64,000 bases of DNA from Candidatus Limnocylindrales bacterium (GCA_035559535.1 DATMBG010000032.1:62001-126000); one strand, 5' to 3'. Shown: positions 7,463-32,725, counted from the stretch's first letter. Numbers and translations are program-made. The notes: generated from the sequence alone by a model not told the origin.

Positions 7463-7802
7463 AACTCAAACTCCTTCTTACTCAATAAACATTAATCTGC
7501 AGAGCGATCAGACCGAATCGCCCTTAAACAGGGCCACCCCTCTCACCCTCCTTCAGGAGAGGGGGAAGGGGAGAGGTAGGCAATGTTTCTACCTAGAAAG
7601 GGTATTAGGATTTCAAGCCTAAAGGAAGAGAAATTTATAAACCCCGTCTTCCTCAGCCGGTGAGGTTCTTCCGGCCGGTTGTTTGATATTTTTAATAGCT
7701 CTATTTTGTTTTTTCCGGTTTATCAGGTACTTTTTAAAATAAAGGAAGTTTTAATTTGAAAGTCAAGGGGTAAGTTTTTAACTCTAAATAGCCGGATTAG
7801 GT

Positions 7803-15777: not shown

Positions 15778-15800
15778 AGGAACTTCCTCCTGGAAATATA

Positions 15801-15835
15801 TAAAGCAGAAGCAGGTAGGGATTGCTTCTGCTTTA
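15801..15835. terminator. Stem-loop between porin and tupA
   Basis: TAAAGCAGAAGCA-N9-TGCTTCTGCTTTA perfect 13-bp stem. Confidence 0.55.
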
Positions 15836-15846
15836 CACTTTAAACA

Positions 15847-16971
15847 TTAAAATACAAACTGGGCTTGGAATCGGAAGGCAGATTCTGTCTCCTGGGCTTC
15901 CGATTGAAACGAGACGATATCATAGTTAAACATGAGTCGAACCGATTTCTGTAAATATAGATTAACCCCCGGGGTTATAAGATAAGACGCATCATCGTCT
16001 TTATCTCGATTGGGGTCTGCATAATCAAACCGAAAAAGTGGCTCTATGAAGCTCATCCATCTGTTATGGAGCTCAAACCGATATCCTGCGTTGACTTGAA
16101 ATCCAAATAAGGTAGGAACATCTTGGGTCAGGAATACGTTTGTATTTCCTACTTTGGGTCCCTGGTAATTATCGGCAACATCCAAGTCCGCCTGCACATA
16201 GAGCCCTTTAGTTTTTCCCTGTTCATAAAGGAAATCAATTCCAAAGGCCTGGGCATTGGCCGATTCAGTGGGCGGCAAGGGATTTGAAGCAATTGGAACG
16301 CCTTCGTAGTTATTATTGGCGAAGGCAAAGCCCACATCGAACTTCTTGAGAGGGGAGACGACCACCCGAGCAATTAACTCTTTGCCATTGTCCGTGTCTA
16401 ATCTATTGGCAGGTCCTCCATTGGTAATGCTTAAAGCATAGCGGATGGGCGTTGAGCTTTCGAACTTTCCTTCAAACTGAACCCCGATATCCCGGTTCGT
16501 ATAGTTCAGAATATCCAGTAAATCGAACAGCGCGGTTCTTCCTAAACCTCGGATACGAACCCCCCGCTCAATGGGGAGGTGAGTTGTCGCAGAGAGGATT
16601 TCAAGTAAAAAAAAGGGCCGCTTGTACTGACCAATGCGGATATTAAACCGGGGATCGAAATTAAGGAGTAGGTAGGCGTCTCGGAGTATATCCGTGCTTG
16701 AAGCTGCATCAATCATGATTCTTCCCGATAGCCAATCACTCAGGACGGCATCTGCAGTCAATCGAGCCCTTCGAACTTCAAAAGAGCTGTCTACCTGATC
16801 TTCTACGGAACTGGTGGAAAATTGAAAATGGGCATATCCTCCAATGGTGAGTTTAACTGCTTGATTTGGAAAGATATTAATCGTTGGCTTGGGCTCCTCT
16901 GCAGCCAGAACCAGTAAAGAGGTAATCCATAAAACAACCGGTACAGCAAGGGGAATCCATTTACTTTGCAT
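15847..16971 (-). CDS. Outer-membrane porin (OprO/OprP-like anion-selective)
   Basis: Signal peptide; FEVRRARL, DAY, RIGQYKRPF, RDIGVQ motifs; C-terminal QFVF. Confidence 0.8.
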   Translation of the reverse strand: MQSKWIPLAVPVVLWITSLLVLAAEEPKPTINIFPNQAVKLTIGGYAHFQFSTSSVEDQVDSSFEVRRARLTADAVLSDWLSGRIMIDAASSTDILRDAYLLLNFDPRFNIRIGQYKRPFFLLEILSATTHLPIERGVRIRGLGRTALFDLLDILNYTNRDIGVQFEGKFESSTPIRYALSITNGGPANRLDTDNGKELIARVVVSPLKKFDVGFAFANNNYEGVPIASNPLPPTESANAQAFGIDFLYEQGKTKGLYVQADLDVADNYQGPKVGNTNVFLTQDVPTLFGFQVNAGYRFELHNRWMSFIEPLFRFDYADPNRDKDDDASYLITPGVNLYLQKSVRLMFNYDIVSFQSEAQETESAFRFQAQFVF

Positions 16972-17172
16972 GTCTGTCCTTTTTATATCTTATATTGAGC
17001 TTAACCTGGAGCAGTCTGAAAAAGTACGCGAAATCCTGAGGTCTGTTTTCAAGACTCCCCCGACTAAACTCAATTTGAGCTGTTGACTTGTGAACTATCT
17101 GGGATCGAATTCAGGCCAAGTCGTTTGAATTTTATCCGATCCTACCAACCGCAGGTTGCTATTCCCTATCAC

Positions 17173-17724
17173 CTACTCTCGACCTGCGGGAAGAATCCTA
17201 AGGGTGGTCACCTGCCTCACCCAACGGGCATGACGTTTCTCATCGGGAATAACGATATGTAGAGGCCCTTCTGGAGCCGACAGTGGCCGACCATCTCGTC
17301 GGTCTGCAAGAAGGACCAGACGATCCGTAAATGACGGATCGAGTTCGGGTAATGCAAAAACTACTTGATACCCGTCTGCGGCTTGAACAAGCAAATATCT
17401 GGCAAGCTGTTTACCACGTAACTCCCTGCCGAATTTCACACCTGCAAGTTGCAGAATGTCTACCAGGGGAACTCCTTCATAGGTTGCCTCTTTCCCTTCA
17501 TGATCCCTGACCTGTACCGTACGACGGGGGAGTTTTGCCAAATCAGATTCCTCTAGCCTAAGGGGATGTTCTACTTCGCCGACCACCATCAGAAGGGAAT
17601 TGGCCACAGGTGAATTCGGCTCCGGGGTCTGTCCAACGGCTATAATGGGGTAAAGGAAAATGATCAGACAGATAATAAAACAGGAACCATACAAAGAGAT
17701 AAATTTGAATTTTGTCTGTTTCAT
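17173..17724 (-). CDS. Exported molybdopterin-oxidoreductase-like (Oxidored_molyb fold) protein
   Basis: Signal peptide; YEGVPLVDIL, AADGYQVVF, GPLHIVIPDEK..RWVRQV motifs. Confidence 0.75.
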   Translation of the reverse strand: MKQTKFKFISLYGSCFIICLIIFLYPIIAVGQTPEPNSPVANSLLMVVGEVEHPLRLEESDLAKLPRRTVQVRDHEGKEATYEGVPLVDILQLAGVKFGRELRGKQLARYLLVQAADGYQVVFALPELDPSFTDRLVLLADRRDGRPLSAPEGPLHIVIPDEKRHARWVRQVTTLRILPAGRE

Positions 17725-18803
17725 GGATGGTGCTCTGCCTGGGAAAGAAGAACTGGATAGAATAACGGCTGTCCGAATTTATCTTTCCCAAACTCCTGGA
17801 TAATTCTCTGTTCCTGGGAGGTTAACCAGCCGATTAAAGCCATAGCCATCACATACTTAACCTGAGGATGTTTGAGTGGGTTAACAGCTATGATGCTGTA
17901 GGGGTTGAAGAGGACAGGATCTCCTTCGAAGAGGAGGGCCAGGTTGGACTGTTGTGGGAGGGTTAAAAAGGTACCTCGATCTGTAAGGGTGTAAGCTCCC
18001 TGCTTCTGGGCCATTTGAAGGGTCTCTAACATACCCTTTTTAGTCTCTACATACCACTTACCTTGAGGATTTATCCGGGCTAACTCCCAGATTTCTTTCT
18101 CTTTACAGTGGGTTCCGGAATCATCCCCTCGAGATAGGAAAAGGGCCTGTTGCCTGGCTATCCGTTTGAAAGCATCTACGGCCGTTTTAGCCAGGCTAAC
18201 CTGGGCCTGATCTTGAGGAGGTCCTACTAAGACAAACTGATTGTACATGATATCTCGACGATTAACCCCATGACCCTCTTGAAGAAATCGCTCTTCTAAC
18301 TTCCGGGCATGAACCAGTACGGCATCCACCTGTCCTGCTGCAGCCAACTCTAGCGCCTTTCCGGTACCCACCGGATAGACCTCTACTTTTATGTTAAATT
18401 GCCTTTCAAAGGGTGAAAGCAGGACGGACAACAACCCGGAACTAACCACACTGGTAGTCGTGGAGAGTTTGAGGCGTTTAAATATGCGGGTAAATTCATC
18501 CTGAACAAAATTCTCCACCTTTTCCCTAAAGACCAGATATTTGGAAAGCCATTCTTTACCTTCTGGGGTAAGTCGGCAGTGGGCCTCTCCACCTCCACCC
18601 CATCGCATCTGTACGAATTTAATCCCCGACGCCGCCTCCATTTTTCGAAGTAACCCCCAGGCGTTCCGATAGGACATCTTGCATTGTTCCACGGCTTCCT
18701 TTAAAGAACCCGACGCTTCAATTGCTGTAAGAAGCTTTGCAGATCGATCATTGAGAATGATCTTCCCTCCCATTTCAAGCCAGATATCCGATTTAGCTTC
18801 CAT
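17721..18803 (-). CDS. ModE-type winged-HTH fused to TupA-like tungstate-binding domain
   Basis: N-term LLTAIEASGSLKEAVEQCKMSYRNAWGLL..LTPEG (ModE HTH); C-term STTTS, LVHA, SRGDDSGTH, YTLTDRGTF (TupA); no signal peptide; start taken at ATG 18803. Confidence 0.88.
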   Translation of the reverse strand: MEAKSDIWLEMGGKIILNDRSAKLLTAIEASGSLKEAVEQCKMSYRNAWGLLRKMEAASGIKFVQMRWGGGGEAHCRLTPEGKEWLSKYLVFREKVENFVQDEFTRIFKRLKLSTTTSVVSSGLLSVLLSPFERQFNIKVEVYPVGTGKALELAAAGQVDAVLVHARKLEERFLQEGHGVNRRDIMYNQFVLVGPPQDQAQVSLAKTAVDAFKRIARQQALFLSRGDDSGTHCKEKEIWELARINPQGKWYVETKKGMLETLQMAQKQGAYTLTDRGTFLTLPQQSNLALLFEGDPVLFNPYSIIAVNPLKHPQVKYVMAMALIGWLTSQEQRIIQEFGKDKFGQPLFYPVLLSQAEHHP

Positions 18804-18834
18804 AACTTTCTCAGGGTTCAAAGGGTTATGAAAT

Positions 18835-19623: not shown

Positions 19624-19653
19624 GAAAAAGAAGGGGGAGCGCTGGCTCCCCCT
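19624..19653 (-). terminator. Rho-independent terminator closing the tes-pls operon
   Basis: Minus strand AGGGGGAGC-CAGC-GCTCCCCCT followed by TCTTTTTC, about 20 nt after the stop codon. Confidence 0.8.
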
Positions 19654-19671: not shown

Positions 19672-22600
19672 TTATCCCACCATGACCGTCGTTTCCCTTT
19701 CCACCGGAGTTTCCTCTGGGGCATGTTGTTGGCTTAGCTCGACCCGTAGTCTGGCTTCATAGGCTTTCAACTGCTCTTCGATCTTCCTCCGCTTCTGCTT
19801 TTCTTTGATCATGTCTTCCCGATAACGTTTTAAGAAGTAGGCGATGGTTTCCACTCGAATTTTGATAGAGCCGGTAGGCTTATTTTCATCGATATCCTTA
19901 AAGGAAAAGTAAGGGGTTCCGGATTTCTCCACGATACGCTCGATAACGGTATAGATGGGAGCATCATGGCCACACTTGAAGCTGGAGAGTTCCAGAGCAA
20001 CCAGGTTGGGATGACGGGCCACATACTTAGCGGCCCAGATCTTACGACTCGTATTCTCGCTATAGGAGTTCTTCCATACATCGGAGATATCCATGGGATG
20101 CTTGATAATACCTTTGCGGACTTCCTCACCGAAGAGTCGCTCCAGGATATCCTCATCGATGGGGAGAGAATCTTGGGTCAGAATCGGATAACCGAGTTTT
20201 TGGAACTCTTCCAGGATATCGTGATTAATGCCGGGGTCATTGTGATAGGGGCGGCCGAGAACCACAATACCCAGTCTATCTTCTGCTTCCAGCCGCTTAA
20301 GGACCTCCCGGGCTGTTCCTCGAAGAATGACATTATTGAAGTAATCCAGAGCCTTAAATCCCTGTTCCACTGCACGCTCATTTTCTTCTTCGGAGAGACC
20401 TAGGATATCTTTAAACTGCTCGTACATCTGTTTGGTAAAGAGCTTTCTTTCTGGGATATTCAGGAAGGTATCCAGGTATACGACCCCCATCTCCTTGAAG
20501 AGATCCCCCTCTTTGGTAAAGGCCGCTTTGACAGCCTCAGGCGTTGCGGTAACCGTGGGACAGGCCCGGTTAGATTGGGTATACTTCAAATCCGAGGTGA
20601 GGGAATCGATCATGGGGAAGAAAATATAATCCAGTTTTTTCTTCTTATGGTGTACATAGAGCAGGTTATGGATATGGGGAATCGCAACCTTGCTGGGGAA
20701 GCAGGGATCAATGGAACCTCGCTTGGCTCCTTCCTTGTAGAGTTGCTCACTGGTATAATCGGAATAGACCAGATTACCCGGTAAAATTCCCAGGCTTTCA
20801 AAATAAGCGCTGAACAGCGGATTCTGGGAGTATTGATTGAGGACCCTCGGAATACCAATTCGAATATTTCGGCGGTTTTCCATCAACCGGATCCGTTTCC
20901 GGGTTTTCTCTGTAAAAGCATAGATGGGAATCGGATCGGCTACAATCTCAGGTTTGAAAGATTCCCAGGCCTTTTCGGCGGCTATTTCGCAGAGATTCGG
21001 ATTTTCTTTCTTAACAGCATCCAGGCCCTTCTTGATTTCCTTCATCTCATTCAAGTCTTCGACCGTTCCTTTCTCACAGGTTGCGATAATGAGCCGTTGG
21101 GTACCCGGTTCCAGAGGAACTTTGGATTTCACCTTGGAAGGTTTCTTATTTTCAACTTTTGGGCCCATCTCATTTCCAGATTCCTGGGTTAAGGGATCCT
21201 TTTCTGTCAGGCCGGTCTTGACATCGATGAAGGTCCGGAGGCATTTGTTCTTGCAGAAATAGCATCGGGTATCTTCATTCCGGGTGGTTTTATAGGTAAT
21301 TTGGGCAACTTTATCCAGACCGATAAAAGTAGTCTGTCGGCCATTTGTCCAGAGCCGATGGGCTTCCAAAGCGGCTCCGATAGCCCCACTTTCTCCGGTA
21401 TGTTCATGGACAATGACCTCCGGCTTGACCCCTTTATCTTTGAATCGGGATTCGATGAAATCCACCTGGGCTTTTACGGCGGCCAGGTTATGTTGGGTTC
21501 CACCCTGGAGAAGGAAGCGGGTTCCCAGGGAAGACAAATTGGGAATTTGGGAGACATAGAGCCAGATGTTCTTGGGAAGGACGTTGGCGAGTCCGGCCAT
21601 GATTTCTTCGGCTTTCCATCCCTGTCGTTGGAAGTCCACAATATCCGATTGCATAAATACGGCGCATCCATATCCAAACTCCGGAAAATCTTTGGCGCTG
21701 AAGGCCAGGTCAGCGAATTCCTCAACTGGAAAGCCAAAACCCTCTGCAGTGCTTTGTAAGAAATATCCATTTCCGGCGGAGCATTGCGTATTCAGCTTAA
21801 AGTCCTTTACACGACCGTCTTTCAGGATCATGAGCTTGATATCCTGTCCCCCCACATCACAGATCACGTCTACATTCTTATAAAAGTGGAGACCCGATTC
21901 AGTATGGGCAACAGTTTCTACAATGGCAGCGTCGGCACCCAGAACATCCTTCAGAATATCCTTGGCATAGCCGGTGGTTCCAACTCCCAGGACCTTCAAG
22001 GTAGCCCCTTGGGATTCCACCTGATTTCGAATCTTCCCGATGATCTCTATGGTATCCTGGATAGGATTTCCCTTGGAGAGTTGATAGGCCTTGACCAAAA
22101 CTTCTTTATTTTTATCGATGAGAACCGCTTTGGTAGAGGTAGATCCTCCATCAATACCCAGAAATCCCTCGACGATTTCACCGGCAGAGAACGTTTTAGG
22201 TACGAACTTTTTCTTCTTGTACTTTTCCTTGAAGGCCGCCAGTTCTTCCGGGCTCTTACTAAGTCCACCCCCACCGGCTTTTTTGGCTTTCTCTTCATTC
22301 CGTCCGTAGTTAATGTAATACTCCAGCTCTTTGGTTCCCTTATAAACCCCAACCTGGGGATCTTCTTGTTTTCCGAACTCAACGGCCCCAATGGCGGCGA
22401 AATATTGAGCATTCTTGGGAACTTTGATCAGGTCCATGGGATTCACGCCGGGCGGGAGAGGAACTTTTCGTTCTTCCCAGATTTTGGGAATATTGGCTTT
22501 CCAGCAATCCTGCATCCCTTTGATATAGGTATTGGGACCCCCCAGCAGTAGAACATGGGGACGGAGCGTATTGCCCCGGGTCAAGACCGAGAGGTTTTGC

Positions 22601-23328
22601 TGGACAATGGCTTCAAAGAGAGAGGCCATGAGTTCGTCTGGAGGAACCCCCGATTTCTGGAGGCCGTTAATGTCCGTTTCTGCAAAGACTCCGCATTTAC
22701 CGGCTACCGGATGAAGTCTTAGTCCGAAATATTCCAGTTCAGCCATTTTCTCCGGTGGGATTCTAAGCTTAGCATTAATTTTATCGATGACCGCCCCGGT
22801 ACCTCCAGCGCATTTATCGTTCATACTAGGGATTTTTTTCTTTTTTCCAGTCTCTGGATCTTCTTTGAAAATGATAATCTTAGCATCCTGCCCCCCCAAC
22901 TCGATCACAGATCCGGCCTCTGGGTAAAGTTTTTCTACGGCCAGGGAAACGGCATTGACTTCTTGAACGAACTTGGCACCGATAAAACGACCTACGTTGG
23001 CCCCCCCACTTCCGGTAACAAAAATACGAAAATTCTCCGTCGGAATAGGAAATTCTGCTTCAATTCGTTTCAAGAATTCCAGGACTTTTTCCGGTTGTTT
23101 GGTTTCATGGCGTTGATAGTCGCTCCAGACGATCTCATCCGTAGCAACATCTACAACCACGGCTTTGACCGTTGTAGAGCCGACATCTAAACCAATCATT
23201 AAATGGCGATCCGATATATTTTCTTTCTTATCCGGGGGAATCGCCTGGATTGTGGGCCCAGGTTCTATACCTTCGATTTGTAGAAGTTTGCTGGCTCCAT
23301 TGGATTCCTGAGAACAGCAGCCGCCCAT
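19672..23328 (-). CDS. PlsA/Ger-like ether-lipid reductase: two BadF/BcrA-type (ASKHA) activase domains plus DUF2229-like Fe-S domain
   Basis: GLDVGSTTVK..ELGGQDAK..MNDKCAGGTG..KCGVFA; second GIDGGSTSTK..DVGGQDIK..QCSAGNG..GCAVF; CYFCKNKC linker; IGIPRVL, CFPSK, GRPYH, SFKCGHD. Start at 23328 (GAGG SD) rather than 23421. Confidence 0.85.
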   Translation of the reverse strand: MGGCCSQESNGASKLLQIEGIEPGPTIQAIPPDKKENISDRHLMIGLDVGSTTVKAVVVDVATDEIVWSDYQRHETKQPEKVLEFLKRIEAEFPIPTENFRIFVTGSGGANVGRFIGAKFVQEVNAVSLAVEKLYPEAGSVIELGGQDAKIIIFKEDPETGKKKKIPSMNDKCAGGTGAVIDKINAKLRIPPEKMAELEYFGLRLHPVAGKCGVFAETDINGLQKSGVPPDELMASLFEAIVQQNLSVLTRGNTLRPHVLLLGGPNTYIKGMQDCWKANIPKIWEERKVPLPPGVNPMDLIKVPKNAQYFAAIGAVEFGKQEDPQVGVYKGTKELEYYINYGRNEEKAKKAGGGGLSKSPEELAAFKEKYKKKKFVPKTFSAGEIVEGFLGIDGGSTSTKAVLIDKNKEVLVKAYQLSKGNPIQDTIEIIGKIRNQVESQGATLKVLGVGTTGYAKDILKDVLGADAAIVETVAHTESGLHFYKNVDVICDVGGQDIKLMILKDGRVKDFKLNTQCSAGNGYFLQSTAEGFGFPVEEFADLAFSAKDFPEFGYGCAVFMQSDIVDFQRQGWKAEEIMAGLANVLPKNIWLYVSQIPNLSSLGTRFLLQGGTQHNLAAVKAQVDFIESRFKDKGVKPEVIVHEHTGESGAIGAALEAHRLWTNGRQTTFIGLDKVAQITYKTTRNEDTRCYFCKNKCLRTFIDVKTGLTEKDPLTQESGNEMGPKVENKKPSKVKSKVPLEPGTQRLIIATCEKGTVEDLNEMKEIKKGLDAVKKENPNLCEIAAEKAWESFKPEIVADPIPIYAFTEKTRKRIRLMENRRNIRIGIPRVLNQYSQNPLFSAYFESLGILPGNLVYSDYTSEQLYKEGAKRGSIDPCFPSKVAIPHIHNLLYVHHKKKKLDYIFFPMIDSLTSDLKYTQSNRACPTVTATPEAVKAAFTKEGDLFKEMGVVYLDTFLNIPERKLFTKQMYEQFKDILGLSEEENERAVEQGFKALDYFNNVILRGTAREVLKRLEAEDRLGIVVLGRPYHNDPGINHDILEEFQKLGYPILTQDSLPIDEDILERLFGEEVRKGIIKHPMDISDVWKNSYSENTSRKIWAAKYVARHPNLVALELSSFKCGHDAPIYTVIERIVEKSGTPYFSFKDIDENKPTGSIKIRVETIAYFLKRYREDMIKEKQKRRKIEEQLKAYEARLRVELSQQHAPEETPVERETTVMVG

Positions 23329-23404
23329 TATTTTTTCCTCCTCTAACCTGTTAGAGAGTATAGGGAGCACGGGTCTTAGATCCCATACCCCTAGACTCCT
23401 CCAT

Positions 23405-25207
23405 CTACTTCCGACCTTCACCCCTCATCAATTCTGCAACGTGGTGAACGAACCGAGCTGCCGTACCGATGATCCCTTTATAGTGGGGGATCTTGTACAT
23501 AGGCCGTTTCAGTTCGGGATGGTCTTCTACATAAGCTTTGATTTCTTCCAAAGTATAGCCGGTAGCCTCCAAAACACGTTTGAATTCTTCTTTGGCTTTG
23601 ACTTTCGCTTCACCCAAGGCCATTTGAACCCGACTATGGGCATTGATCTCACCTTCACCGGAGGTTTCAATGGGGAGGTAAATCATATCCTTGTACATAC
23701 CCATCACGGCGGATTGAACCCCATCACTTTGGGTACTGGGCATACACCCAAAAGGCTTCAGCGAGAGAACCATGTGACAGAGGTCTTTATTATGGTAGTA
23801 GATATTTTTAGCCACTTCCAAATGACCTTCTCCTCCGCCTGCACGGGAATTATACATGGGATGGGCAATTCGTTGGAGTTCGTATTGATCCGTTAACCCG
23901 TGGGCCGTTCCGCCCAAAGCTTCCCGGAGTCGGTTGTATTCCCGGGCAAAGATTTTCTCGGCGATGGTCAGTTGGGCCAGCTTGCTATAGCAATTCTTGA
24001 GCGCCTTGACCCGTTTATGATATTCCCACCACTCTGGAGTGGGTTCCCCTTCTATCAGGCCCTTCCGGTCCCGAATCCCTTGCTTGGCTTGATGGATCAT
24101 ATAATTAATCCAGGTAGCAATGGGTTCTACCAGAACCTCTGCACCTTCCCGTTCCAGGAATCGGAACATATTAAAATTTCCATCGCCTTCCGTGGTTTGG
24201 GCCCAGAATTCACCGGTAATTTTTACAATGGGTTTCACCCGGGTACGATCGACTTCGATCTGGTTGAAGCGATCCCGAACGTTTCTAAGTGCACCGGTAT
24301 AGTAATCACTGAACAATTGGTTTAAAAACTTTCCAATCATCTCTGCGGTATCCATCAAATTGGGCATTTTATTGAGAATTTTTCCCAAAATCCCCTTGAT
24401 TTCCCAATATTCCTTCTTTTTCATAACCTCGTGCATGTAATCCATAATTTCCCGCAGAGCCAGATCGGTTGCGCCTGGTTTGACCTCAAAAGGCCGAATC
24501 TGGTAGGAGACCTCGTTGATTAAGTCCCCGATATTGAAGGCGTTTAGCAATCCCATAAAGAACTTAACGTTCATCTCAAGTCCGGCTTCCACTTCACTCT
24601 GATTTAACCCACCGGATTGCTGGAACAATAAAACCCGGAACCCATCAAATCCTGCATTTTGTAACGCCAGTCGGTATTCGGCCTCATACATTCCGAACCG
24701 GCAAGGTCCACAAGCCCCGGCGGTAATGAACACATAGTTATCGATAATTTCCTTTTTGGACAGACCCTGGGCTTCTAAATTTTGGAGATACTTCACCAGG
24801 TTTCCAACGGTAAAGTAAGTGGGATTGCATTGACCGTTGTTGCCATACTCCTTCCCGAGTTGGAAGGATTTTACATCCGGGGTGGGTAGATAGTTGGGTT
24901 TATAGCCCAGTCCTTCCAGGGCTCCATGGACCAGGTGTTCGTGCTTCCAGGTTAATCCACCAAAAAGAATGGTCGTATGACCTCGTTGGTCCCGGGTAAA
25001 GGGGTTTTCTTGGGGTCTTGTAAAGTGTTGAACGGTCTTTTTCTGAATACCTGCTTCCCTTTCTAACCGGGCTCTTTCTTCATTCAACCTTTGTTGAATT
25101 AAATCTTCCAGAGAATGACCTGGAGCAGGGTCCTTTTTGTAGGGGTGACCGTTGGGATTTCCGTTTTGTTCTATGACCGGTAAGCTCATATGAGAAGAAT
25201 CTGCCAT
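23405..25207 (-). CDS. PlsR-like / 2-hydroxyacyl-CoA dehydratase-like Fe-S reductase component
   Basis: GQCNPTYFTVG, ACGPCRFGMY, KITGEFW, GGEGHLEV, KPFGCMPS motifs; adjacent to activase gene. Confidence 0.8.
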   Translation of the reverse strand: MADSSHMSLPVIEQNGNPNGHPYKKDPAPGHSLEDLIQQRLNEERARLEREAGIQKKTVQHFTRPQENPFTRDQRGHTTILFGGLTWKHEHLVHGALEGLGYKPNYLPTPDVKSFQLGKEYGNNGQCNPTYFTVGNLVKYLQNLEAQGLSKKEIIDNYVFITAGACGPCRFGMYEAEYRLALQNAGFDGFRVLLFQQSGGLNQSEVEAGLEMNVKFFMGLLNAFNIGDLINEVSYQIRPFEVKPGATDLALREIMDYMHEVMKKKEYWEIKGILGKILNKMPNLMDTAEMIGKFLNQLFSDYYTGALRNVRDRFNQIEVDRTRVKPIVKITGEFWAQTTEGDGNFNMFRFLEREGAEVLVEPIATWINYMIHQAKQGIRDRKGLIEGEPTPEWWEYHKRVKALKNCYSKLAQLTIAEKIFAREYNRLREALGGTAHGLTDQYELQRIAHPMYNSRAGGGEGHLEVAKNIYYHNKDLCHMVLSLKPFGCMPSTQSDGVQSAVMGMYKDMIYLPIETSGEGEINAHSRVQMALGEAKVKAKEEFKRVLEATGYTLEEIKAYVEDHPELKRPMYKIPHYKGIIGTAARFVHHVAELMRGEGRK

Positions 25208-25225
25208 TCTACACCTCTAAAAAGA

Positions 25226-25349
25226 GAAGGTATGGGGGCATGGAAGGAAGTATGGGAGTGTGGGGGTGGGGGAGTGGGGGAGATAAAACTTCTATGCTCC
25301 CATACTCCCATACCTCCCTACTCCCATACTTTCATACTCCCATACCTCC
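25226..25349. repeat. Inverted array of degenerate octamers (TATGGGAG / CTCCCATA) forming a long hairpin
   Basis: G-rich left arm and CTCCCATA tandem units in right arm, intergenic inside operon. Confidence 0.85.
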
Positions 25350-25356
25350 GGTTGGA

Positions 25357-26352
25357 TCATGTAAATAACAACGTAGGAAGGGAGCTCCACAAACCCTTAA
25401 TCGAGTAAAGGACTTCAACCTCACCGCGGCAGTTATACCAGCAAGCGTCGCAGGTATTCATTTCATTTTCTCGCTTCAAGGCAGCCAGGGTTTTTTCAAT
25501 GGGTAACTCCGTAATTTTACCTATAGAAGCCTGACGATGTTCCACACATTTAGATACTTGAGAGAAATTATCGATATTGAAGAAGGATCTTCCGGCGTGG
25601 CATCCCGAGATACCTCCGGTAGTCAGGAATTGATCAAAGTTACCTAAGAACACCGGGTTAGAGAGGAAGTTTTTATACTTCTTCTTCAATTTCAGCAGAT
25701 GTTCTGTGGCCTCCTTTCCGAAACGATATTTCTGTTCCCCGGTTTTCATGGTACTATAGGGTTGAACCATGAAATAGGCATTGTGCTTGGCCGCTAATTG
25801 GATCAATCCTTCAATATCGTCCAGGTTATCATGGAACAAGACCGTCATCAGATTAACCCGTTGGTATCTCCGAATACGTTCCTCAGAGAAAAACTTCAAA
25901 GCCCTCACGGCCCGTTCATGGGAGCCTTCTCGCCCCCGCATGGCATCATGTTTTTTGGGGTCCAGATAATCGATCGAGACGCTGGCCCCCCATAAACCGG
26001 CTTCATAAACCCTTCGGGCCAATTCACGGGTAATCATCCATCCATTGGTGGTTACAAAGGGAAAGTGATACTTCGCCAGAATGGAAATAATTTCAGGTAG
26101 ATCCTTCCGAAGAAAAGGTTCTCCACCTGCAATGTTGATCATGAGAGAACCAAACTGCGCCAGCTTTTCCGCTCCTATTCGAAAATCCTCTAAGGTTGCC
26201 TCGTTTTTGGGGCGTTCCTGCCAGTAATAGCAAAAAGAGCATTTGTAATTGCACCAATAGGTAACCTGCCATGAACACCAAACCGGGTTTCCTTTCAAGT
26301 AACTCCAGACCAGACGCAGCTTTTTCACAAACGGCGATAACTCACCCTTCAT
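25357..26352 (-). CDS. Uncharacterised radical SAM protein with twitch/SPASM-like C-terminus
   Basis: CNYKCSFC, AGGEPFLR, HDAMRG, C-terminal CHAG...C...CDACWYNC; no cobalamin-binding domain. Confidence 0.88.
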   Translation of the reverse strand: MKGELSPFVKKLRLVWSYLKGNPVWCSWQVTYWCNYKCSFCYYWQERPKNEATLEDFRIGAEKLAQFGSLMINIAGGEPFLRKDLPEIISILAKYHFPFVTTNGWMITRELARRVYEAGLWGASVSIDYLDPKKHDAMRGREGSHERAVRALKFFSEERIRRYQRVNLMTVLFHDNLDDIEGLIQLAAKHNAYFMVQPYSTMKTGEQKYRFGKEATEHLLKLKKKYKNFLSNPVFLGNFDQFLTTGGISGCHAGRSFFNIDNFSQVSKCVEHRQASIGKITELPIEKTLAALKRENEMNTCDACWYNCRGEVEVLYSIKGLWSSLPTLLFT

Positions 26353-26463
26353 TGTAAAAAGTGGCTAAGGTAGGTTAAAGTTCTTAAAGTGAACTAACCT
26401 TCAAAACCTTCCCCTTTTAGTTCCCCGTAAACTTTAACCCCCTGAGCTGACTTCTCCCTTATT

Positions 26464-28545
26464 TTATTGGTCGAGCTCAATCTGAATTAACGAGGAGGTT
26501 CCAACTTCTGGCGCCACGGGTTCCTTCAGAACGTATTGGCGGTACAGTTTGGCCATTTGTGCATTTTCCCTCTCCCGGCGCAGTCTCTCTTCCCGGGCCT
26601 TTCGCTTTTCTTCCCGGGCATTCTTGGCAATACCTAATTCATCCAGGTCGGTCTGGGCCCCTGCTGCCACATGTTCTGGATTTACAACCAGGGAGTGCTC
26701 GGTACTCTCCAGATTCACCTTTCTCCCACCGGTAAAAATTTCATGCCGCCCATGCTCCTCATACCATTTGGCCAATGTGGCTGTCATATGCATTTTCTCG
26801 ACAATCTTCCGCCAGCCTACTCCGGTGTTATAAGCACAAAACGAAATCTCTCCCTCTTGCGTAGCATAGGGAATAATACATTGCTCGGTTCGTCGAAAAT
26901 CATAATTAAACAAATCCTGGAACCACATTCCGGCTATAAACAGGAAATTCCAACGATCGCTCCGCCGCTTCTGAATGTCTTCCATGGTCCGATCGGCGGT
27001 TACCTTACCGTAATTTCTTCCCGTTGCCCCGAAGGACTTATCGAACTTCACCAGCAGATCCGTCAGCTTGAAATGGGTAGGAGCCTGGAAGGGATCGTAG
27101 TTCCGGATCAGGGACAGGGCCATCCCCAAAATCGATAACCACTTCCCTCGGGCTGCATCATTTACCTTGGCTATGTCTCTGGCTAAACGATCTGCGTTCA
27201 AGAAAGCCGTAACCGGTACCGCCTCTTTGGTTTCCTTATCTACCATGATGGCCATTCCAACCCCACAGTTGGGATGACACCCACAACTCACCTGCCCCCA
27301 GTCTGCTTGAGGTCCATGCACCAGATCTGACCAATCAGAAAAGGTACTTATAAACGAAATGGGGAACCAATCCCGGGCAGGTTCTCCAATACCCAGTTGA
27401 TTTTTCACATCGTGTGCCAGATGGGACAGGGTATACCGTTGGGCCATGCGCCGTTCATCGGTAATGTTTTCATCTCGACCGGTAAAAGATACCGGTTGAA
27501 AGGCACAAAATGCGATCTTTTTCGGGTTATCCAGGGCAAATTGGATGATCCTTCCCACCTGTTCATTGTTGATGCCGTTCACAATGGTAACCACCAGGAT
27601 AATCTCAACCCCTGCATTATGCAGATTCTCAATCGCTCGCAATTTTACATCAAAAAGATTACCCACCCGCCGGTGTGAGTTGGCGGCATTGCCGATTCCA
27701 TCAAATTGTAGATAAACATACCGTAAACCGGCTTCTGCGGCTTGCTTGCAGAATTCCGGACTCTTGGCAAACTCAATCCCATTGGTGGCGGCCTGTACAC
27801 TGTTATACCCTAACTTGCGGGCATAACGGATGGCTTCAATAAAGTGGGGAGATAACGTCGGCTCTCCACCCGAGAACTGAACCGATAACTGACGACGGGG
27901 CTTAATAGAAATAGCATTGTCCAGAAGCGTTTTGATTTCTTCCCAGGTCAATTCATGGACAAATCCCACCTGATTTGCATCCATGAAGCAGGGATCACAC
28001 ATCATGTTGCAGCGGTTGGTCAGGTCAATGGTTAAAACGGCCCCACGCCCACTCTTGATGGTACTGCTTCCATGATTATGAAGTGCCTCATCATTATGGG
28101 CCCGAATATCTCGACCGGGGAATACCTCCTCCAGATGCCGGGTGAAGGCGGGATCAATGGATAGGACATCTTCAAAGTGCCCATGCTTTGGACAATCTTT
28201 AACCATCAAAATCTTACCATCTCGCTCAATAATCTGAGCCTTAATCTCCCCAATCCTTTCCGTACGCAGAATTTCTTGAGGAAGTTTACCGTTGAGAATC
28301 TGCTCCCTGATTTCAGGAACACATCTCGGACATAAAGAATCCGTGGTTCTCGGCCATCCCAGGGTCGGTCTGGTTTTTTGATAAGACTTTAAGAGCGGCT
28401 TGTCAGACCACCGGGGAATGAAGGAAGGGTTAGGTCTGATACGATTAAGCCTCTCAAACACAAACCAGGCTGCATTGGCCACATAGGTTAATCCCTTTTC
28501 TACATACTTCACCGGTTTATGCTTACGTTGATGGGCAACAATCAT
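26464..28545 (-). CDS. tes: Tetraether lipid synthase (Tes/GDGT-MAS)-like radical SAM enzyme
   Basis: N-terminal TDSLCPRC...KDCPKHG rubredoxin-like site; IDLTNRCNMMCDPCF; QFSGGEPT; YLQFDG; FQPVSFTG; C-terminal CHPNCG, CIIPYA, ISFCAYN; AAGGAG SD. Confidence 0.82.
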   Translation of the reverse strand: MIVAHQRKHKPVKYVEKGLTYVANAAWFVFERLNRIRPNPSFIPRWSDKPLLKSYQKTRPTLGWPRTTDSLCPRCVPEIREQILNGKLPQEILRTERIGEIKAQIIERDGKILMVKDCPKHGHFEDVLSIDPAFTRHLEEVFPGRDIRAHNDEALHNHGSSTIKSGRGAVLTIDLTNRCNMMCDPCFMDANQVGFVHELTWEEIKTLLDNAISIKPRRQLSVQFSGGEPTLSPHFIEAIRYARKLGYNSVQAATNGIEFAKSPEFCKQAAEAGLRYVYLQFDGIGNAANSHRRVGNLFDVKLRAIENLHNAGVEIILVVTIVNGINNEQVGRIIQFALDNPKKIAFCAFQPVSFTGRDENITDERRMAQRYTLSHLAHDVKNQLGIGEPARDWFPISFISTFSDWSDLVHGPQADWGQVSCGCHPNCGVGMAIMVDKETKEAVPVTAFLNADRLARDIAKVNDAARGKWLSILGMALSLIRNYDPFQAPTHFKLTDLLVKFDKSFGATGRNYGKVTADRTMEDIQKRRSDRWNFLFIAGMWFQDLFNYDFRRTEQCIIPYATQEGEISFCAYNTGVGWRKIVEKMHMTATLAKWYEEHGRHEIFTGGRKVNLESTEHSLVVNPEHVAAGAQTDLDELGIAKNAREEKRKAREERLRRERENAQMAKLYRQYVLKEPVAPEVGTSSLIQIELDQ

Positions 28546-29026: not shown

Positions 29027-30925
29027 ATGGGATTCCTTACGAAATTTCTAAAAAGCCTGATTCGAGAACCCGATCAAAAAAAAGTAAAGATCAAGAAGAT
29101 CAGACCTCTGGGTAAAATTCGGCCCCGACATCTTCAAAAGGGGGGTTACTATATTGGATTAGAAATCTGGAAGCGGGGGTTAGAACAGTTCTTACGGGCC
29201 AATCAACGAGAAACCAAAATTGAGCGTGAGCGGGATCAGAATCTCCCCAGGGTTTACTATCAACTTCCGGATAGTGTGACCATTTCGGTAGGTAAAGAAA
29301 TCCGCAAGCACCTTAATTTACTCGAAGAGGATGCTGAAAGGGCCATTCAAGAAAGATATCAGGCCTTTGTCCGGGGTCATGCCCAGTATCGCGAAGAGGA
29401 TCATCGAGAGGGGATTCAGGTTCACTGGCAACTTAATCTCTACCTTCCCGATACGGGCTTTACTGCAGCCGTTCGAAGGTCTCCTTCCGACGAGGAGGTT
29501 GCGGCAAAATTGCGGCTTATAGAGCCTAAAGATGTTTTGTTGGAAACCAATGAATATCCTATTTTGAAATCCCAGGGAAATCTCTTTGTAGGAGCAGACG
29601 TGGGGGAGAATAATTTTCAAATTGAGACCCTGGCCAGGGATCATTTTTCCATCAACCGAATAGGAAAGAACTTCCAGGTTTTTCACACCGGATCTGAGGG
29701 AAAAACCGAAATTCAACGGGAGGGGAAAATTATTTCCCTTTCTTCAAAGGGGGATCGATTAATCCACGGAGATCGAATCCTGGCCTATTATGGGGGAACA
29801 ACCTATGTGTTTGAATTTACCGATCTGGAAGTCCCCTCATACCGGGAGCGGAGAGTTGCCTATCTCGAAGAACGAGCTTTTTATATCGTCACCCAGGATA
29901 CCTATGAATACCCCCGCGTATTCTTGGGGGAAATTCCCTCCGGTTCGTATCAGGCAGGTCCCTTTCTCCGGTGGTTTCTCCCAGAGTTTGAAAATGAAAA
30001 CTCCCCCGTGGTCATTTTTTATGAACCGACCAAGAAAAGGTTTTATCTTAAAACCTTATCCGAAAAAGTTCCGGTTAAGATAGGACCAGAGGAAATCTTC
30101 GTAGGAAAACATTTAACCCATGGGGATGTTCTGCAAATTGGAACCACGGAGCTACTTTTTGAAGAGTTTCAAAGCGAGGGGGTCGTACGTCTGGAAATCC
30201 TCTCCCCCCTGGTAGAGCATCCCCCTTACCGGTTAACCAAACAGGTTACGAAGCTCCGTCCTATTACCCTTTCGGGAAGTCAGAGTGGTCCCGGGTTTAT
30301 TTCTCTCCAGGATCCTAAACTTCCAGATGTGGCCGCACAAATTTACTATCAAGAACCCTATTTCTGGATCGAGATCGGTCAAAGAAAACCGGAAAAGTTG
30401 GCCTTCGGGCAGGAAATTCAACTGGGCCAATCGATCCTGCGAATTATGCGGACGTCTCTCCACCCCCGGTGGAAAGCCCGATTTACCTTGATTAACCGGG
30501 ATCAACGAAGGATTTATCCGCTGGCCAATATCCTTCAGGAAAGTTATGAAGAAAATAAGTGTATTCTGGGAGATGGGCCTTCCTTGACCCGTAATAGCTT
30601 TTGGTTAGAGGATGATATGGATGTGATATCGGAACAACATGCCCAGTTCAAAGCTAAAAGCCGGAAACTGGTCGAGATAACAAACTTAAGTACTTCCCGA
30701 CCTATCTGGATCCTGTCTCCCGGTGGGATTTTTTTAAAAGAACTTCTATGGGCAAAACCTGATGTCCATGGAAATATCATTTTACCCGGGGAGTCTATGG
30801 AACTACGCAAAAACCAACGAATTGTCATCGGACCCTATGAATTCGAGTATAATGGACCGGGTCCTTCTTCACTCCTGGGGTACGATGAAGCCGAAGCGAA
30901 GTTGAAAGATCCGTGGGAGAACTAG
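29027..30925 (+). CDS. Multi-FHA-domain protein (about four degenerate FHA-like repeats)
   Basis: Repeated FHA C-terminal signatures LIHGDRI, LTHGDVLQIGTTELLFE, LAFGQEIQLGQSILRI, LRKNQRIVIGPYEFEY; ISEQHAQF. Confidence 0.7.
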   Translation: MGFLTKFLKSLIREPDQKKVKIKKIRPLGKIRPRHLQKGGYYIGLEIWKRGLEQFLRANQRETKIERERDQNLPRVYYQLPDSVTISVGKEIRKHLNLLEEDAERAIQERYQAFVRGHAQYREEDHREGIQVHWQLNLYLPDTGFTAAVRRSPSDEEVAAKLRLIEPKDVLLETNEYPILKSQGNLFVGADVGENNFQIETLARDHFSINRIGKNFQVFHTGSEGKTEIQREGKIISLSSKGDRLIHGDRILAYYGGTTYVFEFTDLEVPSYRERRVAYLEERAFYIVTQDTYEYPRVFLGEIPSGSYQAGPFLRWFLPEFENENSPVVIFYEPTKKRFYLKTLSEKVPVKIGPEEIFVGKHLTHGDVLQIGTTELLFEEFQSEGVVRLEILSPLVEHPPYRLTKQVTKLRPITLSGSQSGPGFISLQDPKLPDVAAQIYYQEPYFWIEIGQRKPEKLAFGQEIQLGQSILRIMRTSLHPRWKARFTLINRDQRRIYPLANILQESYEENKCILGDGPSLTRNSFWLEDDMDVISEQHAQFKAKSRKLVEITNLSTSRPIWILSPGGIFLKELLWAKPDVHGNIILPGESMELRKNQRIVIGPYEFEYNGPGPSSLLGYDEAEAKLKDPWEN

Positions 30926-31000
30926 CGGGGAACAGAGGGGTGAGGAAGTGTGGGGAGATAGAAATCCCCCTCACATTTCTACACCCTCCTGTTGGTTTTA

Positions 31001-32602
31001 ATGACCGGTATTACTGCGGAAGAATTTATCCGACGCAAATCCCATAATCGACTCAAATTCGTAAGGGAAGTGGGTCGGGGTGGCTTTGGAACCGTCTATC
31101 AATTCGAGGATACGGCCACCCAGCAACCGGTCTGCGTAAAGGTTCTAAGTAATGATCTGTTTAACCGATTAGGAAAAGATGAACAGCGCCTGAAGTTCTA
31201 CGAACAGGAAATTCAAAATCTAGAGGCCTACCGGTTTAAATCCAATATCGCCCATTTATACGCACCCCTTTATGAAGATGAAACTTTTCAGTTTTCTCAA
31301 GGAGATCCTTACCTTTTCCTGGCCATGGAATTTGTAGAGGGGGAAGATTTAGGTTATGAAAAAAGTGCCATTGATAACTTCCGAATAGACCATACCGAAT
31401 TGGCCATTCATCTTATATTCCAGCTCTGTTCGGCCCTCCATAGCATCCACCTTCGAGGTCAATACCATCAAGATCTGTTTCCCGATAACCTTCGGGTTAG
31501 CATGGGTCCTTCAGGGAAAAAAGATCATCTGGTGGTATTGGACCTGGGTCATGTCCGGGCTTATAAACGGAAGTCCCACAGTGCCCTCTCCAATATCGGT
31601 ATGTACCATCCTCCTGAAACCATTTATAGTGGTTTCGAAAAATTCACCTCCATCCGTAATGAACGGATTCGATACTTCGACCGGAGCGATATTTTTTCCT
31701 TGGGGGCCCTTTTCTATGAAATGCTTCAACTGGCTCAGCATCCAGATGACCGCGGAGGACCCTTTACTTTTTTTAAAGATATTGCGGAGTCTTTCGAACT
31801 CTTTATTTTGTTTTATGAAACGTATACTGAAACAAGCGACCCGGATCTTTCCCAAAACTGGCGGGCTTGCTTCGAGAAGTACGATAAGCGAGGCCTCATT
31901 CCCAAGCATGAAGAAAAAAGAGAGAAGTTTAAAGATCTGCTCCAGGAGGTAGGTTTGGACACCCGCATTGCTGACAGCCTCCACCTCTTACCGTCCCATC
32001 GCCCGGATATCGAGACCCTTCTAACCATTTTCTGTAATTACTTCCTCAAACAAGGAAAAAGTCTCTTCCGAATAGGAGAACCTGCCGGCTATACCAAGTG
32101 CCTTTACTGGCTTGAACGGATCACCCGCCACTTTCGAGAAGTAGAGCAAGAGGCAAAAAGTAATGACTTTATATCTCTTCGGGATAACCCCATGCTCAAC
32201 CATATTCAACGTAACCTGAAAGTTTATATAGAGGCTTTGCTGGGGATTGGAAAGAGTTATTATCTCTTAAAGGATCCCTCCTGGGGAACCCATTTCAAAA
32301 AAGCCTGGTTTACCTTTAACCTGTTTGATCATACCCTTTCGATTTCTCAGAAGAAAGATATAGGGGCTAAAGCAGCCATCAATTACGCGTTTTATTTATC
32401 TGAGTTGAACAGACACCAGGAAGCCATAGAAATCCTGTGTCAGGTGGGAAGACCTTTACATCCTTCTCTACAGCCCATTTTTTTCAATAATCTGGGCTCG
32501 CTTTATCAACAAATTGGAAAAACCGATGAAGCCGAACAGTGCTTTAAACAGATGAAAATGGAGAGAAAAATGACTTCTATGCCACTGGGAGATGAGATTT
32601 AG
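31001..32602 (+). CDS. Hanks-type Ser/Thr protein kinase with C-terminal TPR
   Basis: VGRGGFGTVY, VCVK, LAMEFVEG, HQDLFPDN, DLG, YHPPE, SDIFSLG; NNLGSLYQQIGKTDEAEQCF TPR. Confidence 0.82.
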   Translation: MTGITAEEFIRRKSHNRLKFVREVGRGGFGTVYQFEDTATQQPVCVKVLSNDLFNRLGKDEQRLKFYEQEIQNLEAYRFKSNIAHLYAPLYEDETFQFSQGDPYLFLAMEFVEGEDLGYEKSAIDNFRIDHTELAIHLIFQLCSALHSIHLRGQYHQDLFPDNLRVSMGPSGKKDHLVVLDLGHVRAYKRKSHSALSNIGMYHPPETIYSGFEKFTSIRNERIRYFDRSDIFSLGALFYEMLQLAQHPDDRGGPFTFFKDIAESFELFILFYETYTETSDPDLSQNWRACFEKYDKRGLIPKHEEKREKFKDLLQEVGLDTRIADSLHLLPSHRPDIETLLTIFCNYFLKQGKSLFRIGEPAGYTKCLYWLERITRHFREVEQEAKSNDFISLRDNPMLNHIQRNLKVYIEALLGIGKSYYLLKDPSWGTHFKKAWFTFNLFDHTLSISQKKDIGAKAAINYAFYLSELNRHQEAIEILCQVGRPLHPSLQPIFFNNLGSLYQQIGKTDEAEQCFKQMKMERKMTSMPLGDEI

Positions 32603-32725
32603 GTAAGTTGTCTGTCATAGCTTTGTAGTAAAGATCCGGATGGCTTGTTTGCACAGATTATAGCCGGGCTTCAGGGCGAGGAAAGGAGGACTTCTACAAA
32701 ACAACGGACAACGAGGGATGGATCC

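Follow-up and report, generated by a model that had tools for sequence, protein, structure and literature searches.

Introduction

Can a bacterium carry, in one compact locus, both an enzyme that couples lipid tails and an enzyme that turns ester bonds into ether bonds, and would such a locus specify ether-linked, membrane-spanning lipids? This question is raised by four neighboring genes (genes 1 to 4) in a stretch of 64,000 nucleotides (GCA_035559535.1 DATMBG010000032.1:62001-126000, labeled Candidatus Limnocylindrales bacterium), which as a whole is called the window below. The genes encode a homolog of the tetraether synthase Tes (also named GDGT-MAS), a small radical S-adenosylmethionine (SAM) protein, and two proteins that resemble the ether lipid reductases PlsA/PlsR and Ger. 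[quoted passage not shown]

A role of bacterial Tes in brGDGT formation has been suggested for a set of 456 bacterial homologs (Zeng et al. 2022, PMC8941075), and for Solibacter usitatus a route was proposed that runs from PlsAR homologs via Tes to GrsAB (Halamka et al., PMC10087280). According to Chen et al. 2025, as cited in PMC13023045, Tes in combination with Ger goes along with brGDGTs, and tetraesters go along with Tes alone. An earlier note, made from the sequence of the present locus, had proposed that tail coupling and ether formation are combined here in one operon, together with an extra radical SAM enzyme, and could yield branched tetraethers.

Here, the four proteins, their relatives in other genomes, and the genomic host of the locus are described. 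We incline, somewhat more than we doubt it, towards reading the locus as two lipid-remodeling modules, probably derived from Acidobacteriota, that together would give ether-linked membrane-spanning lipids.

Results

Gene 1 Belongs to the Tes/GDGT-MAS Family

As judged from its sequence, gene 1 encodes a full-length member of the Tes/GDGT-MAS family, in agreement with its earlier designation as Tes-like. Pfam assigns it the domains Zn_ribbon_HMPTM (E = 4e-13, residues 65-129) and Radical_SAM (E = 1.7e-22), and the best NCBIfam model is that of Tes (NF045702, 323.9 bits), followed by the TrsS family at 219.5 bits. The best match in the PDB is 7TOL (E = 2e-63), of which residues 35-513 of 526 align with residues 100-596 of gene 1, the runner-up being SkfB (4e-7). 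The radical SAM motif C179-x3-C183-x2-C186 and the GGEPT motif align with 7TOL, as do C118 and H121 of the rubredoxin-like Zn-ribbon (C72, C75, C118, H121) and the C-terminal residues C427, C556, and C570, which coincide with three Cys at the ligand positions of the auxiliary [4Fe-4S] cluster. These metal-site residues agree with the metallocenter description in the available text of the review PMC13459092, where a rubredoxin-like N-terminal domain with three Cys and one His is given as a feature of Tes/GDGT-MAS.

The likeness to the archaeal enzymes (MJ0619, PDB 7TOL; MA_1486) extends over nearly the full length and includes the Zn-ribbon with three Cys and one His, the CX3CX2C and GGEPT motifs, and three C-terminal Cys, whereas gene 1 differs from them in having approximately 65 extra N-terminal and approximately 100 extra C-terminal residues, and the additional Cys 421 and 423. 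Its presumed substrate would be a fatty-acyl or alkyl lipid on glycerol-3-phosphate, in contrast to archaeol for archaeal Tes. Far closer relatives are found in bacteria: the nearest database proteins share 79-83% identity with gene 1, and those with a named host come from Blastocatellia/Acidobacteriota, while acidobacterial Tes homologs, as described for S. usitatus and Edaphobacter aggregans (Zeng 2022, PMC8941075; Halamka 2022, PMC10087280), are 64-84% identical. Such relatives are named at the source 'radical SAM protein', 'MftC', 'tetraether lipid synthase', and once '7,8-dihydro-6-hydroxymethylpterin dimethyltransferase'. Together with the label 'activator of 2-hydroxyglutaryl-CoA dehydratase' for the reductase, these names bear out the expectation that automated annotation would describe the genes as MoaA-like and CoA activase.

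The Tes-type gene is single-copy in the host genome, which, besides belonging to a different phylum (Moduliflexota), differs from many Acidobacteriota in having no second Tes paralog of 37-38% identity. Many Acidobacteriota with homologs of genes 3 and 4 (among G041-G090) contain two such paralogs, one of approximately 690-700 amino acids, with 64-81% identity to gene 1, and another of approximately 550-620 amino acids, with 37-38%. In one locus (L029) a paralog of the short type, 34% identical to gene 1, is located approximately 5 kb upstream of the gene 3-4 pair.

Genes 3 and 4 Resemble a Split PlsAR/Ger-Type Reductase

Gene 4 had been described as PlsA-like, which is borne out by its domain architecture: Pfam detects BcrAD_BadFG, an HgdC-type ATPase domain, in two stretches (E = 7.6e-73) and DUF2229 (E = 4.7e-50). 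This 'BBD' architecture of two B domains and DUF2229 has been assigned to PlsA/Ger, with the Ger core described by Sahonero-Canavesi et al. (PMC13159169). In the available parts of these publications, Ger proteins with BB domains are described as making alkyl ethers (PMC13159169, PMC13274423), two B domains are linked with alkyl-ether producers (PMC13274423), and Ger and PlsA are considered indistinguishable by sequence (PMC11868695). Gene 4 is the sole true DUF2229 gene of the host genome; the model of this domain gives a match in the control genome of Thermotoga maritima as well. Conserved Cys in an alignment of gene 4 homologs (A2) are C907, C954, and C1150. A CxxCxxxC motif (C720, C723, C727; residues 720-727, positions 21241-21264) is located in the stretch that links the second ATPase domain to DUF2229, and may constitute an extra metal site.

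Gene 3 matches no Pfam or NCBIfam family, even at E <= 10 and with PF06050 included, and a sequence search of the PDB returned nothing below E = 0.4. Nevertheless, it belongs to a large family: all 8000 scored candidates matched at E <= 1e-3, the best 120 of these being at least 67% identical, and the same threshold is reached by 1923 cluster representatives (clustered at 50% identity). Invariant Cys in its alignment (A1) are C127, C166, C169, and C488. Fusion proteins join members of this family to the domains of gene 4 in both orders, i.e., gene-3-like, BB, DUF2229 (P0149) and BB, DUF2229, gene-3-like, which is the Ger-like order (P0181). A further fusion from the representative library (P0160) combines a gene-3-like part with pyridine-nucleotide-disulfide oxidoreductase and 4Fe-4S ferredoxin domains, a flavin/ferredoxin module that may supply this reductase family with electrons from within the same protein.

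The AlphaFold2 (AF2) model of gene 3 (predicted local distance difference test score, pLDDT, 87) has as its top PDB folds the double-cubane cluster protein DCCP, the benzoyl-CoA reductases MbdON/BzdNO, and the (R)-2-hydroxyisocaproyl-CoA dehydratase HadBC (probability 1.0, E ~1e-3, template modeling (TM) score 0.3-0.48). The model of gene 4 residues 840-1249 (pLDDT 80) again recovers DCCP, HadBC, and BzdNO. BLASTP found no match between gene 3 and gene 4. In complex prediction, gene 3 and the DUF2229 part reached an ipSAE of 0.85 against 0.01 for the best control, a mark that 58 of 80 solved complexes and 2 of 110 mismatched pairs attained. The runs showed a contact agreement of at least 96% and a partner pLDDT of at least 86, and the predicted interface contains the conserved Cys segments of both chains. 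Because similar HadBC and benzoyl-CoA reductase (BCR) complexes have been solved, this result may partly reflect that likeness, and is taken as a likeness rather than as independent proof. On basis of fold, fusions, and predicted complex, the earlier proposal that gene 3 is a PlsR-like partner of gene 4 appears plausible, although a Pfam match was not found.

Like PlsA/PlsR of Clostridium perfringens and Ger of T. maritima (Tmari_0479) and Desulfatibacillum alkenivorans, genes 3 and 4 combine a BBD protein with what would be a second catalytic subunit or domain. They differ from these in that the enzyme is split, the R-like gene comes first (R-A order), and Pfam gives no HGD-D signal for the R-like protein. 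The best structural neighbors of both catalytic parts, HadBC/HadI (3O3M), the class I benzoyl-CoA reductases BzdNO (8S02) and MbdONPQ (9GAI), and DCCP (6ENO, 7YYL), share the HgdC-type activator and match the predicted heterodimer with Cys at its interface. In comparison with these, identity is 9-13% at TM scores of only 0.3-0.48, gene 3 is approximately 200 residues longer, and one of the catalytic subunits carries the ATPase dimer as a fusion.

Tes and the Reductase Pair Co-Occur Far More Often Than They Are Adjacent

A scan for gene 3 with one genome per species yielded at least 588 loci, of which the best 80 were analyzed for neighboring genes. Neighbor counts are based on tblastn; a separate survey of open reading frames (ORFs) was crude and lost the pair in approximately ten GC-rich loci. 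The 80 loci are mostly from Acidobacteriota (Terriglobia, Bryobacterales/Solibacteraceae, and Blastocatellia) and also include metagenome-assembled genomes labeled Poribacteria, Latescibacterota, Dadabacteria, Zixibacteria, and Spirochaetia. A gene 4 homolog is located directly downstream of the gene 3 homolog, on the same strand, in 77 of the 80; two of the remaining loci stop at a contig edge, and in the third (L094) gene 4 was not found in 10 kb of downstream sequence. The gene-3 family, though invisible to Pfam, thus constantly accompanies BBD proteins. In these 80 loci, broad conservation does not extend to any further gene around the pair: recurring neighbors are a glyoxalase insert, dnaE/accA, a TPR protein, and a CxxCxxCC protein (7-10 of 80 each), and an unnamed ORF of approximately 96 amino acids (14 of 80).

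Among the pair-bearing genomes within this set, 50 were checked for Tes, and 47 contain a Tes-family match at E <= 1e-40, the best match being only 37-38% identical in three of these 47 (G042, G043, and G049). An even sample of 301 Acidobacteriota contained Tes in 178 genomes and gene 3 in 19, 18 of which have a close Tes (E <= 1e-200), G094 being the exception (Fisher p = 0.0006, uncorrected for relatedness). Since 19 gene-3 genomes stand against 178 with Tes and 18 of the 19 overlap, the reductase occurs in far fewer of these genomes than Tes does and is almost nested in Tes-bearing ones. This distribution agrees with the association reported by Chen et al. 2025, as cited in PMC13023045. Omitting the genomes flagged as unpublished (G066 and G087, with loci L046 and L067, and G113, G138, and G235) changes the respective counts to 45 of 48 for Tes in pair-bearing genomes, 75 of 78 for gene 4 next to gene 3, and 175 of 298 for Tes in Acidobacteriota, and leaves the conclusions unchanged.

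A synteny survey had been suggested in the earlier note, and its outcome is two-sided, in that the gene 3-4 pair is nearly constant whereas adjacency of Tes to the pair is rare. This adjacency arose independently in different gene orders, of which there are at least two: R-A-tes in L027, L048, and L080, and tes-rSAM-R-A in the window. In L026 (positions 5822-7695, Latescibacterota) the tes gene beside the pair is split into two overlapping ORFs by a frameshift or an assembly error, and an intact copy is present elsewhere in that genome. No statement on adjacency of tes and plsAR/ger was found in the literature passages searched.

The Host Belongs to Moduliflexota and the Cluster Is Likely of Acidobacterial Origin

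RpoB of the host, encoded on another contig, is 70-71% identical to that of Ca. Vecturithrix sp. and Ca. Moduliflexus flocculans, followed among named groups by Myxococcota at 58%. On these identities the host is placed in Moduliflexota (KSB3), which supplies the taxonomic placement that the earlier note had called for. Genes 1 and 3 are present in two of nine Moduliflexota species genomes, both of the host genus, and were not found in the other family, represented by seven genomes of 77-97% completeness. The contig concerned (C32, 147 kb, GC content 0.454) has a tetranucleotide correlation of r = 0.9976, among the highest of the 42 contigs of at least 30 kb, and the GC content of the cluster is 0.465-0.483.

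A maximum-likelihood tree of 33 Tes proteins placed both Moduliflexota sequences (gene 1 and that of the sister species genome G001) in a 100/100 clade of 29, the other 27 members of which are acidobacterial; the tree is rooted at its midpoint only, the L026 sequence was left out as too short, and the placement of the Moduliflexota proteins inside the clade of 29 is not settled. The large radical SAM protein, whose position relative to the Tes clade had been singled out as a check, thus nests in an acidobacterial-dominated Tes clade. Because the cluster is confined to one genus and its Tes is nested among acidobacterial ones, horizontal acquisition from Acidobacteriota is likely; the ameliorated composition of the cluster argues that this acquisition was not recent. 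Pyruvate kinase, encoded on the same contig, was used as a check on nativeness and did not discriminate (45-46% identity to Moduliflexota versus 46-49% to Acidobacteriota).

Gene 2 Is a Lineage-Specific Radical SAM Protein

Gene 2 has Radical_SAM as its only Pfam domain, a B12-binding domain was not found by Pfam, and all its NCBIfam matches are far under the cut-offs, the best reaching 89 bits versus 400. Invariant in its alignment (A3) are C34-x3-C38-x2-C41, GGEP, C251-x-A-G, C269, and C301-x2-C304-x3-C308. The extra radical SAM enzyme of the earlier note is real and stays outside the NCBIfam families, yet its membership of the pathway finds no echo elsewhere: tblastn did not find gene 2 in any of the 80 best loci with gene-3 relatives, and a close homolog was not found in 48 other pair-bearing genomes, in which only three weak matches (approximately 30% identity) were obtained. 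Relatives were found on nine metagenome contigs at 46-62% identity over the matched part, and on four more at 27-32%. Genes 1, 3, and 4 were not found on these 13 contigs, apart from weak matches to gene 1 (23-25%) on the distant L147 and L148. On two soil-metagenome contigs, L141 (1-4220) and L144 (4618-8732), the gene 2 relatives (51-54%) directly follow lolC/E-lolD-lolA, a neighborhood that hints at an envelope-related role of the family.

Two kinds of known lipid-modifying radical SAM enzymes were considered for gene 2 and rejected. The lipid cyclase Grs and the methylase Gmm are B12-binding, and gene 2 is neither of these because it lacks this cobalamin-binding domain. Gms, the synthase of GMGT (glycerol monoalkyl glycerol tetraether), has an N-terminal helical COG4001 domain, more than 400-420 amino acids, and a SPASM domain whose two auxiliary clusters are fully ligated by Cys (PMC11214058, PMC11186832), whereas gene 2 comprises 331 amino acids, with its radical SAM motif starting at residue 34 and only five invariant C-terminal Cys. 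Gene 2 does share with Gms a SPASM/twitch-type C-terminus, and it directly adjoins tes; in contrast, it is shorter, has no N-terminal six-helix/COG4001 region, as judged by the motif position, and its nearest relatives are located away from tes. Clustering of bacterial gms homologs with either tes or mss has been reported (Garcia 2024, PMC11214058), so that there is precedent for a SPASM radical SAM gene next to tes; gene 2, however, is of another type.

Organization of the Locus and Neighboring Genes

The coordinates of the features are collected in Table 1. The description of four co-oriented genes closed by a terminator is confirmed by the minus-strand ORFs and by a terminator-like hairpin (19653-19632) that starts 19 bases beyond the gene 4 stop codon and is followed by a T-run. 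The same four-gene order, with 98% protein identity, is present in the sister species G001.

Table 1. Features of the tes-reductase locus, in positions of the window.
Feature	Position	Strand	Description
Gene 1	26464..28545	minus	Bacterial Tes (tetraether synthase/GDGT-MAS) homolog, 693 amino acids
Gene 2	25357..26352	minus	Small radical SAM protein with SPASM/twitch-like C-terminus, 331 amino acids; lineage-specific insert
Repeat hairpin	25226..25349	minus	Spacer between genes 2 and 3; RNA fold and U-rich run
Gene 3	23405..25207	minus	Putative PlsR-like catalytic partner subunit, 600 amino acids, outside Pfam/NCBIfam families
Gene 4	19672..23421	minus	PlsA/Ger-like 'BBD' protein, 1249 amino acids; probable start ATG 23328
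Intrinsic-terminator-like hairpin	19632..19653	minus	Stem of 9 pairs (7 G-C), 4-nt loop, then TCTTTTTCTA

Spacers of 111 bp and 149 bp separate gene 1 from gene 2 and gene 2 from gene 3, respectively. With GTG 23421 as its start, gene 4 overlaps gene 3 by 17 bp, whereas with ATG 23328 the overlap is replaced by a 76-bp spacer and the protein begins with MGGCCSQ. Because ATG 23328 is preceded by a strong ribosome-binding site (AGGAGGA) and the alignment of gene 4 homologs begins only at residue ~57-75 of the GTG-start protein, ATG 23328 is probably the true start. The 76-bp spacer (region 23326-23421) holds a GTATGGGA unit.

A hairpin of approximately 125 nt, followed by UUCUCUUUUU, takes up almost the whole spacer between genes 2 and 3; its predicted RNA folding energy is -74.2 kcal/mol (z = -6.81; 0 of 200 shuffles equally stable). 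It is built from GTATGGGAG-type units, G-rich and with their complement, which occur 426 times genome-wide versus approximately 43 expected (about tenfold). An equivalent hairpin, 77% identical, is present at the same position in G001. This element may act as an attenuator, a terminator, or an RNA-stability element. Owing to this strong hairpin and its U-run, the 'one clear terminator' and 'one operon' of the earlier description are not certain, although the terminator downstream of gene 4 is real. A single operon is plausible, in which the four genes would be co-transcribed.

Divergently from gene 1, the plus strand (29027-33580) encodes three proteins that may form a signaling module: one of 632 amino acids that weakly matches FHA, a TPR-containing Ser/Thr kinase, and a PP2C phosphatase. 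Beyond the terminator, on the same strand as the cluster (14917-18821), two PBP_like_2 phosphate-binding-type proteins, a phosphate-selective porin O/P, and a small molybdopterin-oxidoreductase-domain protein are encoded. An unrelated radical SAM gene of 381 amino acids (10584-11729, plus strand) adjoins the pyruvate kinase (9024-10454) and an Nramp transporter.

Discussion

In the reading that we favor, substrates and products are inferred from characterized relatives. By analogy with archaeal Tes/GDGT-MAS, gene 1 would abstract hydrogen from each of two lipid tails at its terminal carbon and then couple these tails, assisted by its auxiliary Fe-S cluster, to produce iso-diabolic-acid-type lipids that span the membrane. 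In gene 4, the two fused HgdC-like ATPase domains would use ATP to drive a low-potential electron into a heterodimeric catalytic core, in which DUF2229 of gene 4 would pair with the protein encoded by gene 3, and Fe-S sites ligated by Cys would lie at the interface. As proposed from Ger and PlsAR, genes 3 and 4 would then reduce glycerol esters to alkyl or vinyl ethers, and both modules together would give brGDGT-like or mixed ether/ester lipids that span the membrane, to which gene 2 may add a further modification.

Several observations weigh against this reading. The Tes score of gene 1 (323.9 bits) stays below the curated equivalog cut-off of 450, and the activity of bacterial Tes is described in the available text of PMC11868695 as unconfirmed, with no proof from heterologous expression. 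For the reductase, an HGD-D Pfam signal was not found in gene 3 at E <= 10, a comparison of the gene-3 family with DUF2229 profiles by hhalign was not significant (probability 0.6%, with only a short motif near the first Cys aligned), and the putative assignment of genes 3 and 4 as a split PlsAR/Ger-type, ATP-driven reductase is based on architecture, fold, fusions, and a predicted complex. A gene-1-type Tes is present within just 4 of the 80 loci (L026, L027, L048, and L080) and in one (L026) of the 43 loci with full 10-kb flanks, and Tes was not found in two Poribacteria and one Terriglobia among the 50 pair-bearing genomes checked. Gene 2 is lineage-specific rather than a conserved part of the pathway, and transcription of the locus may be divided into two units by the hairpin and U-run that separate genes 2 and 3. 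The idea that Tes and PlsAR/Ger lead to brGDGTs is already published for S. usitatus (PMC10087280). Of the earlier proposal of tail coupling and ether formation, the gene identities hold.

Some of these observations could be explained by modules that act independently, with Tes forming ester-bound tetraesters, the reductase forming plasmalogens or monoalkyl ethers on diacyl lipids, and their adjacency stemming from joint transfer. The rarity of that adjacency, the hairpin and U-run between the modules, the Poribacteria with the pair in which Tes was not found, and the 160 of 178 Tes-bearing Acidobacteriota without the pair all fit this explanation. It accounts less well for a pair that is almost wholly confined to Tes-bearing genomes (18 of 19), for a juxtaposition in at least two gene orders, and for the association of Tes plus Ger with brGDGTs, and of Tes alone with tetraesters, attributed to Chen et al. 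2025 in PMC13023045; on balance we regard it as possible, but not as the probable explanation. Alternatively, genes 3 and 4 might be unrelated to Tes and act, with ATP, as a reductase or dehydratase on a substrate other than a lipid (acyl-CoA, aromatic compound, or small molecule), considering that the nearest solved folds are DCCP, HadBC, BzdNO, and MbdON, that homologs are named after the activator of 2-hydroxyglutaryl-CoA dehydratase, and that the likeness to PlsA/PlsR/Ger is one of architecture and fold. We consider this quite unlikely, in view of the assignment of BBD and DUF2229 to PlsA/Ger (PMC13159169), the response of the DUF2229 model in T. maritima, owner of a characterized Ger, the co-occurrence of the pair with Tes, and the lack of conservation of CoA-transferase, ligase, and fermentation genes near the pair.

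Two further explanations have little probability. An acidobacterial contig might have been misbinned into the host genome, as could be suspected from the 79-83% identity of gene 1 to Blastocatellia proteins, from the seven other Moduliflexota genomes in which the cluster was not found, and from the non-discriminating pyruvate kinase. However, C32 is among the contigs most typical of the genome by tetranucleotide profile, the genome-wide GTATGGGAG repeat is located inside the cluster, and a second species of the genus has the identical arrangement, which makes misbinning very improbable. Hardly credible at all is that gene 1 is a pterin methylase, as in the original annotation of MJ0619, or another non-lipid radical SAM enzyme: the Pfam name of its N-terminal domain refers to HMPTM and one homolog carries the corresponding name at its source, but MJ0619 itself is presented as a structurally characterized GDGT-MAS in the available text of the review (7TOL; PMC13459092).

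A more far-reaching version of the favored reading would hold that the four genes are a self-sufficient mobile cassette that converts a diester bilayer into an ether-linked monolayer, that gene 2 is a new minimal lipid-modifying enzyme, and that the gene-3 family is the 'missing PlsR' of all BBD-only 'Ger architecture 2' systems recorded in domain-based surveys. We think this unlikely. If it were true, gene 2 might, for example, bridge or cyclize the coupled chains, giving products that are ring-bearing or resemble branched glycerol monoalkyl glycerol tetraethers (brGMGT-like), for which we know of no bacterial enzymes.

With the two-module reading as the preferred one, what is new here is the phylum Moduliflexota as a carrier, the rare physical linkage of the modules, and the recognition of the gene-3 family as partner of BBD proteins. 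The latter bears on earlier surveys: in the available text of a sponge-symbiont preprint BBD-only hits are reported 'without the plsR part', and in that of a BLAST-based survey a PlsR homolog was not found in Solibacteraceae at the thresholds used. Gene 3 represents a large, unnamed family that is invisible to domain-based surveys. At approximately 9 kb and with a moderate GC content, the compact locus lends itself to heterologous expression. The physical linkage provides evidence that bacterial Tes and a PlsAR/Ger-type reductase belong together. In the literature searched, a link between Moduliflexota and GDGTs was not found ('Moduliflex' and 'GDGT' occurring together in no paper), and the genus described here would be a candidate producer of brGDGTs outside Acidobacteriota.

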